From Escherichia coli (lineage in GTDB: Bacteria > Pseudomonadota > Gammaproteobacteria > Enterobacterales > Enterobacteriaceae), in NCBI RefSeq assembly GCF_003334315.1, contig NZ_QOWR01000047.1: DNA of 37,104 nucleotides. One strand, written 5' to 3'. This document shows, in pieces, positions 1 through 2,301 of this stretch. Within the stretch, counting starts at the first letter, position 1; each line of letters opens with the position of its first letter. Position numbers and translations under genes: made by a program. Under the pieces are notes generated by a model that had not been told where the DNA came from, searched no databases, and worked only from the letters and a program-made list of their open reading frames with translations.

Positions 1-108
1 AGGCAGCACCTGGCACGGCTGGGACGGAAGTCGCTGTCGTTCTCAAAATCGGTGGAGCTGCATGACAAAGTCATCGGGCATTATCTGAACATAAAACACT
101 ATCAGTAA
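1..108 (+). CDS. insB: IS1 transposase InsB, C-terminal fragment (5' partial)
   Basis: Frame 1 from position 1 translates [35 protein letters not shown]-stop, which I recognise as the InsB C-terminus; stop codon at 106-108. Confidence 0.75.
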
Positions 109-123
109 GTTGGAGTCATTACC
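1..123 (+). mobile_element. IS1 insertion sequence, terminal ~123 bp including terminal inverted repeat (element continues off the left edge)
   Basis: Positions 1-123 match my recollection of the IS1 right end (...CTGAACATAAAACACTATCA-TAAGTTGGAGTCATTACC) almost base for base; element terminus ...GGAGTCATTACC ends at 123. No search run. Confidence 0.85.
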
Positions 124-198: not shown

Positions 199-438
199 TT
201 AACCATTATCGACCACGATATTGCTTTTACGTAACAGTGGGCAATCTGTTATCCCCAAGAAACCACTTTTAGTGTGCAAGTATTGTACCGTGCTGGTGCC
301 TCTGGCAGTCAGATAGGTACATTGCAAACCTAATCCTGCGGCATTCTCTTTGCTTCCAATCAAAACGCCATATCCGCTGAGTAATAATCCTATCCATACC
401 AGTGCTATCAGCATAACTGTGCGAATGATGAATCGCAT
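199..438 (-). CDS. yobH: small inner-membrane protein YobH (79 aa)
   Basis: ORF track 79 aa, hydrophobic N-terminus (MRFIIRTVMLIALVWIGLLLSGYGVLIG); position divergent from mgrB as in K-12. Confidence 0.8.
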   Translation of the reverse strand: MRFIIRTVMLIALVWIGLLLSGYGVLIGSKENAAGLGLQCTYLTARGTSTVQYLHTKSGFLGITDCPLLRKSNIVVDNG

Positions 439-814: not shown

Positions 815-1102
815 ATGAACGAAGTTGTAAATTCAGGCGTGATGAACATTGCGTCTTTGGTTGTATCGGTGGTGGTTCTTCTTATCGGGCTCATCTTGTG
901 GTTTTTTATCAATCGTGCCAGTTCTCGGACTAACGAACAGATTGAACTGCTTGAGGCGTTGCTGGATCAGCAAAAACGTCAAAATGCACTGTTACGTCGT
1001 TTGTGCGAAGCAAACGAACCTGAGAAAGCAGATAAAAAGACCGTTGAGAGTCAAAAATCGGTTGAAGACGAAGATATTATTCGTCTGGTCGCCGAACGAT
1101 AA
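815..1102 (+). CDS. yebO: small membrane protein YebO (95 aa)
   Basis: ORF track 95 aa with a single N-terminal TM segment and charged C-terminal tail; synteny mgrB-yebO-yobF-cspC. Confidence 0.85.
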   Translation: MNEVVNSGVMNIASLVVSVVVLLIGLILWFFINRASSRTNEQIELLEALLDQQKRQNALLRRLCEANEPEKADKKTVESQKSVEDEDIIRLVAER

Positions 1103-1770
1103 TCCTTCCTCAATCTTGAGTAACCCCGTCGTTGAAGGGTTACTCAATTCATCCTGATTATACGCACTGCCATGGTGCAACTGCTTCAAATTAAAACTCT
1201 GGTCTGACTTCAAATAATTATCATATTATTTATTTGCGTAACGGGATATCAGAAAAAGATATTTTCCTCATTAATTTATTAGGATGTTTACATCGGATTT
1301 GTGATTAAGCGTGGTATTATTTATTAGCGAAATGTTTCTCTCTTGATTTTTTGCTCATTCATCAATTTTTCTTATTTTAAATTTTCAATCCCTTTGGGGA
1401 TTGACTTCTCTTTAGGGTAATTGATAGCCGTTAACTGACTGTTTTATGAGAAAAAGTGATATAACTTTTTATTCATTGCATAGCAAAAAATGTGATATTG
1501 CACGCACTATGTAATAACTTCTCCCACTGGCCTGGAACAACTGAACTTATTGAACTATGTTAGAAACTACGCCAGTTTAAGTATCTGCCTGAACTGGCAA
1601 GGTTAAGCACAATGATATATCGGCGCGTATTCCGTTGCATAAGTGTGCAAAAAAAGTGGAAGACGTATCGAGATTTGTGCGTCTGATCGAGACATGTTTA
1701 AAAATGGCTTGCCATAATTAACGTTGTATGTGATAACAGATTTCGGGTTAAACGAGGTACAGTTCTGTTT

Positions 1771-1914
1771 ATGTGTGGCATTTTCAGTAAAGAAGTCCTG
1801 AGTAAACACGTTGACGTTGAATACCGCTTCTCTGCCGAGCCTTATATTGGTGCCTCATGCAGTAATGTGTCAGTTTTATCTATGTTATGCCTGCGGGCGA
1901 AGAAAACAATCTAA
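1771..1914 (+). CDS. yobF: YobF, 47-aa small protein co-transcribed with cspC
   Basis: Manual translation from ATG 1771: [47 protein letters not shown]-stop (TAA 1912-1914); 12 nt upstream of cspC. Confidence 0.85.
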
Positions 1915-1926
1915 GGAATTTTTCAA

Positions 1927-2136
1927 ATGGCAAAGATTAAAGGTCAGGTTAAGTGGTTCAACGAGTCTAAAGGTTTTGGCTTCATTACTCCGGCTGATGG
2001 CAGCAAAGACGTGTTCGTACACTTCTCCGCTATCCAGGGTAATGGCTTCAAAACTCTGGCTGAAGGTCAGAACGTTGAGTTCGAAATTCAGGACGGCCAG
2101 AAAGGTCCGGCAGCTGTTAACGTAACAGCTATCTGA
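1927..2136 (+). CDS. cspC: cold-shock-domain protein CspC (69 aa)
   Basis: ORF track protein [37 protein letters not shown]... carries the RNP1 motif KGFGFI of the CspA family. Confidence 0.95.
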
Positions 2137-2182
2137 TCGAATCCACTGATCTGAAGTGTGAATACGCTTCAATCTCGCTATA

Positions 2183-2208
2183 AAGCCTCGTCGAATGCGA
2201 GGCTTTTT
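2183..2208 (+). terminator. intrinsic terminator downstream of cspC
   Basis: Hairpin GCCTCG-loop-CGAGGC followed by TTTTT (2204-2208). Confidence 0.6.
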
Positions 2209-2301
2209 ACTATGCTTTATCTTCGCTCCTGGCGTTCGGATATTTGCCCGCCGCGTGATTCGCGTTACACTTGCGGCCTTTAGTATCCTGCCGGAGTTGT
2301 C

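Follow-up and report, generated by a model that had tools for sequence, protein, structure and literature searches.

The long spacer between yebO and yobF-cspC in Escherichia coli: probably a composite intergenic control region

The Spacer and Its Conservation

The window considered here is a stretch of 37,104 nucleotides from Escherichia coli (NCBI RefSeq assembly GCF_003334315.1, contig NZ_QOWR01000047.1), in which yebO ends at position 1102 and yobF starts at 1771, so that the spacer between them (1103-1770) measures 668 bp. The same layout occurs in the MG1655 annotation (669 bp) and in strain CP53, and of 5426 complete E. coli genomes all but two (5424) carry the spacer, at 95-100% identity. 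No annotated feature underlies it in the complete E. coli genomes compared or in the MG1655 RefSeq record. Its GC content over 1200-1500 is 27-31%, compared with 42-50% in the flanking genes. A preliminary description of this DNA had noted a 668-bp non-coding interval, a long AT-rich stretch, and the absence of any credible ORF; the coordinates, occurrence and composition given above agree with the first two of these claims, and the third has likewise held up. Twelve ORFs of 15-28 aa lie wholly within the spacer, including one (1612-1686) with AAGG 9 nt 5' of its ATG, which would favour a hidden small protein gene. Among E. albertii, other Escherichia, Salmonella, and Citrobacter, none of the 12 retains its start, frame, and stop beyond the effect of conserved promoter DNA; those that seem conserved overlap invariant promoter sequence and carry stop codons in Salmonella or Citrobacter. 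A 68-aa minus-strand ORF (1603-1809) also fails: it is no more than the reverse strand of the conserved yobF start and promoter DNA, and elsewhere neither its length nor its sequence is maintained. A small protein gene in the spacer is thus exceedingly improbable.

Conservation was assessed over a comparison set of 76 Enterobacteriaceae loci, with an identity profile drawn from 23 genera (22 besides its own). Identity is 0.07-0.25 at 1103-1282, reaches 0.5-0.7 in discrete islands, and is 0.86-0.99 from 1683 on. Between 1326 and 1650 the islands are common to genera at almost constant spacing, and 1673-1770 is nearly invariant. The features distinguished are:

1116-1147, plus strand: stem-loop at the 3' end of the mgrB-yebO transcript (11-bp stem, 10-nt loop, then AAUUCAUCC, no U-tract)
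1152-1320, unstranded: AT-rich segment, unalignable between genera, at the site of an MBL-fold hydrolase gene of relatives (from identity and GC)
1326-1341, unstranded: island A, palindrome AGCGAAATGTTTCTCT, resembling a LacI-family (RbsR-type) operator (from conservation and the match to rbsD)
1353-1387, unstranded: island A', family consensus GCAGTGTCATCAAAATTTCATTATTTTGGTGCA, matched at 70% or more in 68/76 loci; the Escherichia copy is degenerate
1385-1404, plus strand: terminator-like hairpin TCAATCCCTTTGGGGATTGA followed by CTTCTCTTTA, in Escherichia coli only (from a pattern scan)
1468-1499, unstranded: island B, a dyad of the GCATA-N2-TATGC type in most genera, matched at 70% or more in 53/76 loci; degenerate in E. 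coli
1533-1561, plus strand: island C, putative distal promoter (-35 TGGAAC at 1533-1538, 17-bp spacer, C at -13, -10 TATGTT at 1556-1561)
1635-1650, plus strand: island D, TTGCATAAGTGTGCAA, family consensus CGCATAACTGTGCAG, matched at 70% or more in 64/76 loci; holds an orphan RNA 3' end at 1646
1673-1737, plus strand: near-invariant core control region (identity 0.86-0.93 across 23 genera), with ATTTGTGCG at 1673-1681, GATC at 1685-1688, and the palindrome ATGGCTTGCCAT at 1705-1716
1689-1718, plus strand: core promoter 1, GAGACA (1689-1694) with TG-n-CATAAT (1713-1718)
1709-1737, plus strand: core promoter 2, TTGCCA (1709-1714) with GATAAC (1732-1737)
1723-1770, plus strand: short yobF-cspC leaders, starting at 1744-1747 (E. 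coli) or at the equivalent of 1723 (Salmonella construct), with Shine-Dalgarno GAGG at 1754-1757

The 3' End of the mgrB-yebO Transcript

The mgrB-yebO mRNA has its 3' end in the first 50 bp of the spacer. A hairpin just after yebO had been described previously, with arms at 1118-1126 and 1137-1145 and an end at 1150; the whole stem occupies 1116-1147, ending at 1147, and has a free energy of -15.5 kcal/mol (z = -3.3), matched by 2 of 200 shuffled sequences. In published Term-seq data the yebO 3' ends classed as "primary" fall, under each of the three growth conditions, at 1908212 and 1908213 (window 1151 and 1150), which puts the RNA end 3-4 nt past the stem and agrees with the earlier implication that the hairpin is the yebO 3' end. 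The structure supplies the stable GC-containing stem-loop expected of a Rho-independent terminator; a U-rich tract is absent directly 3' of it, where the tail reads AAUUCAUCCUGA, and a terminator scan did not flag the site. Stable hairpins of unrelated sequence follow the yebO stop codon in loci that lack the MBL-fold hydrolase gene (median z -3.2, with z < -2 in 74%). Read-through has been documented by SMRT-Cappable-seq as a unit comprising yebO, yobF, and cspC (b1825, b1824, and b1823), and published mapping thus establishes both the yebO 3' end and transcription past it. The stem-loop, with no U-tract, may mark or protect the RNA end and is leaky, some transcripts running on into yobF-cspC.

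An AT-Rich Segment at the Site of a Gene in Relatives

Immediately downstream, the segment 1152-1320 has an identity of only 0.07-0.35 to the 22 other genera, with many gaps, and its GC content falls to 27-35%; H-NS binding in the spacer is flagged in a published gSELEX table. In 30 of the 76 loci an ORF of 331-335 aa begins 13-51 nt past yebO. The label "MBL-fold" for this ORF derives solely from an HxHxDH-like motif and a weak NCBIfam match, the best hit being a sub-threshold "metal-dependent hydrolase" at 60.8 bits against a cut-off of 144. In species that carry the gene, the non-coding DNA before yobF still measures 444-552 bp (mostly 513-552). The ~170 bp after the yebO 3' end are AT-rich, fast-evolving DNA occupying the place where other Enterobacteriaceae have a hydrolase gene co-transcribed with yebO, and 1152-1320 is, judged from sequence comparison, most likely what remains after loss of that gene. 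Within Enterobacter the E. cloacae/hormaechei group presents a clean deletion of ~900-930 bp relative to E. mori, with the last 60-90 nt of the hydrolase gene left in place. Searches of the E. coli window for a remnant returned no match by tblastn (E-values up to 10) and only chance-level matches of 9-13 nt by blastn. As no remnant is detectable in E. coli, the case for loss, as opposed to gain elsewhere, rests on the distribution of the gene and on the Enterobacter example.

Conserved Islands Upstream of yobF-cspC

The remaining ~450 bp would represent the upstream control region of yobF-cspC, in which conserved islands at near-constant distances are most likely protein-binding sites. It might be argued that only the yebO hairpin and the ~100 bp adjoining yobF have a function and that all other spacer DNA is neutral filler. 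Low GC content, reported H-NS binding, and the lack of annotation are consistent with such a view, as are the unalignable segment 1152-1320 and the degeneration of islands A' and B in E. coli itself. However, islands A, C, and D are retained in 64-73 of the 76 loci, across many genera and amid randomised flanks, and their distances to yobF are almost constant though the DNA between them varies. The non-coding DNA of 444-552 bp is moreover kept before yobF even where the extra gene is present. The idea of neutral filler is already disfavoured on these grounds, and we regard it as very unlikely.

Island A resembles an operator. Its core, CGAAACGTTT, occurs in 73/76 loci at -382 to -477 from yobF. 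The MG1655 copy, AGCGAAACGTTTCTCT, matches the MG1655 rbsD operator region, TCAGCGAAACGTTTCGCTGA, at 15/16 positions; the rbsD sequence is one which we take to be the RbsR operator. The window copy, with TG in place of the central CG, agrees with the rbsD site at 14/16, and copies from other genera at 12-14/16. The substitution in this strain is a rare C-to-T change at position 1333, the T allele being present in at most 78 of 5426 genomes. At one mismatch, at least one match to the island A 12-mer arises in 22 of 100 shuffled windows, and the case for island A is therefore its conservation and not the match itself. Island A is a putative LacI-family (RbsR-type) operator on these grounds, and its distance from the main yobF TSS (~420 bp) is unusual for a repressor. 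A published Salmonella study treats both RbsR and CspC and draws no link between them. Other regulators were compared by eye with elements of the spacer: a PurR site misfits at the outer GC positions, the fit to a Cra site is confined to a 10-bp core, and an NtrC site has the wrong half-site spacing. A minus-strand promoter reading into island A (ATGACA-17-AATAAA) is present in the family consensus and has been lost in Escherichia, Salmonella, and Citrobacter.

Island A' follows island A at a spacing of 41-43 bp in 57 of 67 loci. PhoB-like direct repeats within it (14/18 by eye) were rejected as there is no -10 hexamer at the right distance. Island B lies at -291 to -306 from yobF and is probably a protein-binding site; a related motif is found in island D, 165-171 bp downstream in 37 of the 53 loci with a good match and 156-157 or 160 bp downstream in the rest. 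The terminator-like hairpin at 1385-1404 is probably a chance match: three such sites were found against 1.8 +/- 1.8 expected, conservation of the hairpin does not extend to E. albertii, and no Term-seq 3' end lies nearby. A terminator-like hairpin in a Salmonella locus (L084, 1127-1151) likewise occurs at chance frequency, is unrelated in sequence to the one at 1385-1404, and coincides with no mapped 3' end.

Core Promoters and Short Leaders

Closest to yobF, the element ATTTGTGCG lies at -98 from the gene in nearly all loci. The pair TTGCCA-17-GATAAC is an RpoD promoter according to the published gSELEX study, and a pattern scan recovers GAGACA-18-CATAAT in both E. coli and Salmonella, with TAGACA-18-CATAAT as its relative in Lelliottia. 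The core region (1673-1737) also contains peaks from published sigma-S ChIP and RpoN gSELEX data. Two further assignments made by eye were discarded, namely a CRP site at ~1675-1695, whose right half-site agrees at 2/5 positions, and a sigma-54 -24/-12 element near the RpoN peak, whose spacing is improper. E. coli TSSs reported at 1907615-18 and 1907617 (1905641 in older coordinates) correspond to window 1744-1747 and give leaders of 24-27 nt, and the primer of a Salmonella reporter begins at GTTGTATG, equivalent to window 1723, for a leader of 48 nt. Pairing of OxyS and CyaR has been placed within 1723-1770 and the resulting regulation described. The promoters near yobF are established by published mapping; in the proposed scheme these two overlapping promoters would yield the bulk of the mRNA, with leaders of 24-48 nt that serve as targets of OxyS and CyaR.

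Transcription Further Upstream

Island C resembles a promoter, and the start that it predicts (~1566-1569) is ~203 nt upstream of yobF. An element of this kind is found in ~72/76 loci at a position that predicts a start at -203. Its -10 hexamer is TATGGT, TATGTT, or TAAGGT in 63/76 loci and begins at -213 to -218 in most, C is present at -13 in 74/76, and TGGA(C/A)N stands 17 bp upstream of the -10 in ~65/76. By consensus the element is weak, as the E. coli sequence (TGGAAC-17-TATGTT) agrees with sigma-70 at 7 of 12 positions; the family sequence (TGGACG-17-TATGGT) agrees at 8/12, and island C falls below the pattern-scan threshold. Island D lies at -133 to -135 from yobF (median -135), and its distance from island C is 85-89 or 77 bp. 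By eye a CytR site in island D fits E. coli alone.

Published mapping bears on this part of the spacer in several ways. Term-seq reports an orphan 3' end at 1907716 on the minus strand (window 1646), 125 nt upstream of yobF, in the sheet for LB at OD600 2.0 only; its count of 264,852 compares with 46,490 at the yebO end and 3.06 million at the cspC terminator. In that study an orphan end was retained only when a dRNA-seq TSS lay upstream of the end and past the yebO stop codon, and retention of the end at 1646 therefore implies a TSS between the yebO stop codon and 1646 in E. coli, a position to which island C would conform. The Cappable-seq supplements list no coordinate within the spacer. 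In Salmonella 4/74, Tn5 and TSS coordinates can be reconciled only with a TSS 181-390 nt upstream of yobF; the paper is ambiguous, in that the coordinates of its Table 1 need a distal TSS, yet its reporter begins at the proximal site. A published RpoS gSELEX peak falls at approximately window 1618. Together these data are consistent with island C as a putative distal promoter, weak and probably sigma-S-assisted, which would account for both the Salmonella upstream TSS and the stationary-phase 3' end at 1646.

RNA-level features are less in evidence. An Rfam scan, which the preliminary description had proposed as a check, yielded no credible family within the spacer: on both strands of 1103-1770, with E-values up to 10, nothing attained its gathering score, CRISPR-DR25 scoring 22.1 bits (gathering score 36) at 1382-1408. 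A consensus fold of 55 sequences, from island C to 1646, contains only 2 base pairs, at an energy of -0.69. Compared with shuffled sequences, the 81-nt E. coli RNA has z -0.4, and the E. coli and Salmonella leaders have z -1.0 and -1.4. No U-tailed terminator hairpin is found at 1646; the end falls within a weak stem of 5 bp, with A7 after it, and the A7 tract and extended stem are specific to Escherichia.

The suggestion had been made that the spacer could hold a long 5' leader for yobF-cspC or an unannotated small RNA, and that it would fail if TSS data placed the promoter immediately upstream of yobF and left the remaining spacer untranscribed. The main promoters do adjoin yobF, and the rest of the spacer is nonetheless transcribed, as attested by published read-through, the 3' end at 1646, and upstream start sites, implied in E. 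coli and reported in Salmonella. What survives of the suggestion is transcription within the spacer, namely yebO read-through, the orphan 3' end, the implied upstream TSS, and the conserved island C; what speaks against it is the location of the main TSSs next to yobF and the want of an Rfam match, a terminator, or conserved RNA structure.

Under one account, stationary-phase transcripts from the distal promoter at ~-203 would be truncated or processed at 1646, thereby setting the distal flow into yobF-cspC; the controlling factor could be CspC itself, whose annotation is that of a transcription antiterminator. The restriction of the 1646 end to OD600 2.0, its strength (~9% of the cspC terminator signal), its inclusion in a 5'-UTR list that demands an upstream TSS, and the Salmonella TSS 181-390 nt from yobF are all compatible with a long regulated leader, as is that annotation of cspC, and long regulatory leaders are a known feature of the cspA family (RF01766). 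The end nevertheless has no hairpin and U-tract, the A7 tract and extended stem do not extend beyond Escherichia, the leaders fold no better than shuffled sequences and yield no consensus structure, and proximal promoters dominate every published map, so that this account is rather doubtful. The same 3' end and implied TSS, the C at -13 in island C, and an RpoS holoenzyme gSELEX peak ~50 bp away could instead reflect an independent, unannotated small RNA of ~80 nt (~1566-1646) acting in trans in stationary phase. This is the less probable of the two and is unlikely: such an RNA would have neither Rho-independent terminator nor U-tail, it matches no Rfam family and is not annotated in the MG1655 RefSeq record, and its body between islands C and D is unconserved, with the two-pair consensus and near-zero z-score given above. 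The end at 1646 could also be a decay intermediate of read-through RNA. A broader scheme, in which an Enterobacteriaceae-wide, sigma-S-assisted distal promoter gives rise to stationary-phase RNA (an ~80-nt species ending at 1646 or a long leader) and, with phased sites including the RbsR-like operator, adds growth-phase or sugar-responsive control of cspC, is offered tentatively and is likewise rather doubtful.

Significance

Taken as a whole, the spacer is probably a composite but ordinary intergenic control region, made up of the yebO 3' end, an AT-rich segment most likely left by gene loss, and the upstream control region of yobF-cspC, with no hidden gene. Most of this picture is already in the literature or in databases. 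Control of yobF-cspC probably extends ~450 bp upstream and not just over the ~100 bp next to yobF. The yobF-cspC genes are a recurrent target of adaptive mutation in ageing E. coli colonies, and in Salmonella succinate use is restrained by CspC; these two observations give control of yobF-cspC its practical interest. The island map names conserved sites that are open to mutation or binding tests and draws attention to a published, unexplained stationary-phase RNA end. The outcome is a refined annotation of a known promoter region and leaves the view of how such regions work unchanged.

Comparison with Known Systems

Several elements of the spacer have counterparts elsewhere. Like intrinsic terminators and stem-loops that protect 3' ends, the yebO hairpin is a stable GC-containing stem right after the stop codon with an RNA 3' end mapped 3-4 nt on; it differs in having no U-tract and in the read-through transcripts known to pass it. 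The putative operator of island A shares with the RbsR operator at rbsD a 16-bp palindrome with a central CG, the MG1655 copy agreeing with AGCGAAACGTTTCGCT at 15/16 positions, but it lies ~445 bp upstream of yobF and not over the promoter, most genera have a weaker right half (GTTTTT), and this strain has lost the central CG to mutation.

With the cspA family, whose 5' UTR is described by RF01766 (cspA thermoregulator), yobF-cspC shares a gene with a cold-shock domain and control at the RNA level upstream of it. The RF01766 model matches window 1751-2211 (yobF, cspC, and the terminator) at 135.7 bits against a gathering score of 78, a match owed to the coding sequence of cspC; across yobF the 5' part of the model aligns poorly, and within 1103-1750 the model has no match. 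The cspA leader is ~160 nt long, compared with 24-48 nt for the main yobF-cspC leader. The end at 1907716 is catalogued, for one growth condition, in the same way as the orphan and 5'-UTR 3' ends that arise from premature termination or processing, such as ChiZ and IspZ.

Long co-directional spacers with multiple promoters have been recognized by gSELEX, among them those of cydA (847 bp) and yobF (670 bp), the latter being this very spacer, for which more than one RpoD holoenzyme peak and H-NS binding were reported. The gSELEX study provides binding peaks only; to these the present analysis adds the island map, the position of the putative distal promoter, and the gene-loss context.

Organization of the yebO-yobF spacer

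The 668-bp spacer between yebO and yobF-cspC (1103-1770) is a known, busy promoter region that also contains the 3' terminus of the preceding operon. It belongs to the mgrB-yebO-yobF-cspC-rlmA region of E. coli, which makes up the first 3.2 kb of the window, has every gene on the plus strand, and is annotated in identical order in MG1655 and strain CP53. The window gene calls around the spacer are:

815-1102, plus strand, yebO
1771-1914, plus strand, yobF
1927-2136, plus strand, cspC

The spacer is found in 5424 of 5426 complete E. coli genomes, usually as a single copy and at 95-100% identity, and no annotated feature lies beneath it in the 20 records listed, in MG1655 or in CP53. Twelve ORFs of 15-28 aa fall wholly within it, none of which retains start, frame and stop in other Escherichia, Salmonella, and Citrobacter; those seemingly conserved overlap invariant promoter DNA. 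The absence of a credible ORF noted in the preliminary description is thereby confirmed, as is its long AT-rich stretch (GC drops to 27-31% over 1200-1500). Further upstream, window 1-119 is the right end of an IS1 (InsB C-terminus ...IKHYQ and stop, inverted repeat 97-119) inserted just downstream of yobH (199-438, minus strand). IS1 adjoins yobH in only 2 of the 5426 genomes, neither identical (96.7%, 92.6%).

The 3' end of yebO

A hairpin follows yebO directly, as previously described (quoted arms 1118-1126 and 1137-1145; -15.5 kcal/mol, z = -3.3), although its stem spans 1116-1147 and does not reach 1150. Published Term-seq tables for three growth conditions all list MG1655 1908212/1908213 as a "primary" 3' end of yebO; by sequence context these positions are window 1151/1150, 3-4 nt past the stem. 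The hairpin is no textbook intrinsic terminator, since its tail is not U-rich, and published full-length transcript data include a transcription unit that begins at the yebO start (1908567) and extends across yobF and cspC; the hairpin is thus leaky and the entire spacer is transcribed at some level. For comparison, 80 Enterobacteriaceae loci were fetched by YebO query, of which 76, the window included, were analysable. Where no extra gene occupies this position (46 related loci), a stable hairpin follows the yebO stop (median z -3.2), with sequence varying between genera, as would fit selection on structure rather than sequence.

Presence and loss of a putative hydrolase gene

The analysed loci fall into two spacer classes. 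Short spacers, mostly 590-745 bp, occur in Escherichia, Salmonella, Citrobacter, Klebsiella, Raoultella, the E. cloacae/hormaechei group, and others; long spacers, mostly ~1510-1580 bp, occur in Lelliottia, several Enterobacter species, Leclercia, Kosakonia, Phytobacter, Buttiauxella, Cedecea, and others. The long class harbours an ORF of 331-335 aa, present in ~30 of 76 loci (L009 3308-4303, L029 3310-4317, and 28 others), which matches the NCBIfam "metal-dependent hydrolase" at sub-threshold level only and is named a putative MBL-fold hydrolase from its HNHYDHLD motif. Because it starts mostly 13-31 nt, and at most 51 nt, past yebO, it probably shares a transcript with mgrB-yebO. Within 70 nt after it there is no stable hairpin (median z -0.06), and gene-bearing loci retain 444-552 bp (mostly 513-552) of non-coding DNA before yobF.

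Gene-less Enterobacter align to E. mori as far as the gene's first few bases and resume at its last 60-90 nt. The resulting clean deletion of ~900-930 bp (L053, L059, L069, L070, and L073 of the E. cloacae/hormaechei group vs. L034, E. mori) is, on these alignments, a clear case of the gene having been lost recently. No remnant of the gene was found in E. coli at the protein or DNA level; judging from position and distribution, 1152-1320 may be its decayed site.

Promoters adjacent to yobF

Reported yobF start sites include 1907615-18 (tagRNA-seq), 1905641 in older coordinates (a sigma-S ChIP-seq study), and 1907617 (full-length transcripts terminating at the cspC terminator). All of these correspond to window 1744-1747, giving a leader of 24-27 nt, and fit the TTGCCA-17-GATAAC promoter of an RpoD gSELEX study (TTGCCA 1709-1714, GATAAC 1732-1737). 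The leader of a Salmonella reporter construct begins at GTTGTATG, equivalent to window 1723 (48 nt). Most yobF-cspC mRNA therefore has a short leader. Pattern scanning gave a second promoter in E. coli and Salmonella, GAGACA (1689-1694)-18-TG-n-CATAAT (1713-1718), with the variant TAGACA-18-CATAAT in Lelliottia. Published sigma-S, RpoN, and NtrC binding is centred on these promoters, and the reported sites of OxyS and CyaR action lie close to the yobF ribosome-binding site. For RpoN, the published gSELEX peak is at ~1734, near which there is no proper -24/-12 element.

A palindrome, ATGGCTTGCCAT (1705-1716), shares bases with the -35 hexamer of the main promoter and hardly varies among the 76 loci (at least 95% per column). 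A GATC at 1685-1688, 20 bp upstream, is likewise almost invariant, and both look like binding or methylation sites. Separately, the cspA thermoregulator Rfam model matches 1751-2211 at 135.7 bits; this is no evidence for a thermosensor, as the alignment rests mainly on cspC coding sequence and terminator, the 5'-UTR half of the model aligning poorly across the yobF ORF.

Conserved islands upstream of yobF

Identity between E. coli and 22 other genera rises toward yobF, with conserved blocks ("islands") in the otherwise unconserved DNA.

Identity profile and conserved islands
1103-1282, identity 0.07-0.25
Conserved islands, identity 0.5-0.7
1683-1742, identity 0.86-0.92
1743 onward, identity 0.93-0.99
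1326-1341, island A, AGCGAAA(C/T)GTTTCTCT
1353-1387, island A', family consensus GCAGTGTCATCAAAATTTCATTATTTTGGTGCA, Escherichia copy degenerate
1468-1499, island B, dyad GCATA-N2-TATGC in most genera
1531-1568, island C, promoter-like block
1635-1650, island D, consensus CGCATAACTGTGCAG

Island distances to yobF are near-constant. Island D matches in 64 of 76 loci, where its position relative to the yobF ATG is -133 to -135 (median -135); ATTTGTGCG is at -98 in almost every locus. Spacing between islands C and D is 85-89 bp in 54 loci but 77 bp in 8, and between B and D it is 165-171, 156-157, or 160 bp. Consensus folding of the C-to-D segment over 55 distinct sequences gave no shared RNA structure (2 base pairs, -0.69). 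From spacing fixed in the absence of conserved sequence or RNA structure, we infer constraint at the DNA level, that is, by bound proteins. Within this variable segment sits a motif common to Escherichia, Salmonella, and Citrobacter only, GA(G/A)AATATATC (1612-1621 and equivalents).

Island A resembles an operator. In MG1655 it reads AGCGAAACGTTTCTCT and matches at 15/16 positions the sequence directly before rbsD, TCAGCGAAACGTTTCGCTGA, which we take to be the RbsR operator; its core, CGAAACGTTT, is retained in 73/76 loci. By this resemblance, island A is a candidate site for RbsR or a paralogue. The window strain carries T for the central C (position 1333) of MG1655 and most E. coli, an allele present in at most 78/5426 genomes; if a LacI-family protein binds here, the change at the central CG should weaken binding. 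Mutants in rbsR and cspC were both isolated in the Salmonella 4/74 study discussed below, which drew no connection between them.

Distal transcription and the small RNA question

Term-seq also reports an "orphan" 3' end, 1907716(-), only in the LB OD600 2.0 sheet, with 264,852 counts (in the same sheet, yebO end, 46,490; cspC terminator, 3.06 million). Its flanking sequence places it at window 1646, which precedes the main start by ~100 nt and yobF by 125 nt. It was retained in that study's list of 5'-UTR ends, from which ends with a stop codon as first upstream feature were dropped unless a dRNA-seq TSS lay within 200 bp, implying a TSS between the yebO stop and 1646. For Salmonella 4/74, the study, whose reporter used the proximal start, gives an upstream TSS at 1893683 and Tn5 insertions "in the 5' UTR" (1893511, 1893502) and "in cspC" (1893137). 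Mapped onto an S. enterica locus (yobF 1501-1644, cspC 1657-1866), these coordinates are mutually consistent only with a TSS 181-390 nt upstream of the yobF ATG.

Island C is a candidate distal promoter:

1533-1538, plus strand, putative -35 TGGAAC
1556-1561, plus strand, putative -10 TATGTT (17-bp spacer, C at -13)

The -10 is TATGGT, TATGTT, or TAAGGT in 63/76 loci, beginning at -213 to -218 in most, and C at -13 is present in 74/76. It is weak by consensus (7/12 for sigma-70). The predicted start, ~ -203 from yobF, would put all three Salmonella insertions where the authors state and precedes the E. coli 3' end by ~80 nt. RpoS holoenzyme gave a gSELEX peak at ~1618. In a published in vitro run-off array the forward-strand probe set of the spacer, IG1905616_1906284-f, was preferentially transcribed by sigma-S polymerase, as was a CFT073 ORF antisense to cspC; a minus-strand signal over 1103-1770 would be antisense to yobF, and the Term-seq tables list no antisense 3' end for the spacer.

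That the end at 1646 marks a discrete regulatory RNA has little support. The end and the implied upstream TSS would suit such an RNA, but the 81-nt product (1566-1646) folds no better than shuffles (z = -0.4), and the end lies inside a 5-bp stem followed by A7, an Escherichia-specific arrangement, with no hairpin and U-tail preceding it. The Rfam scan proposed earlier returned no small RNA or cis-element in the spacer. A 235-nt leader folds at z = -1.0 in E. coli and -1.4 in Salmonella. Most simply, the end arises from distal or read-through transcription by processing, pausing, or a roadblock. The long leader or small RNA envisaged in the preliminary description is thus borne out in part: upstream sense transcripts exist, yet most mRNA has a short leader and nothing has the features of a typical small RNA gene. 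Published TSS mapping places the main starts near yobF; the Salmonella coordinates and the Term-seq filter also require an upstream TSS.

The RpoD gSELEX study had already described the interval as a "670 bp spacer" bound by H-NS and showing several RNA polymerase peaks. To this are added the conservation map, the context of gene presence and absence, the candidate distal promoter of island C, and the operator-like palindrome of island A.
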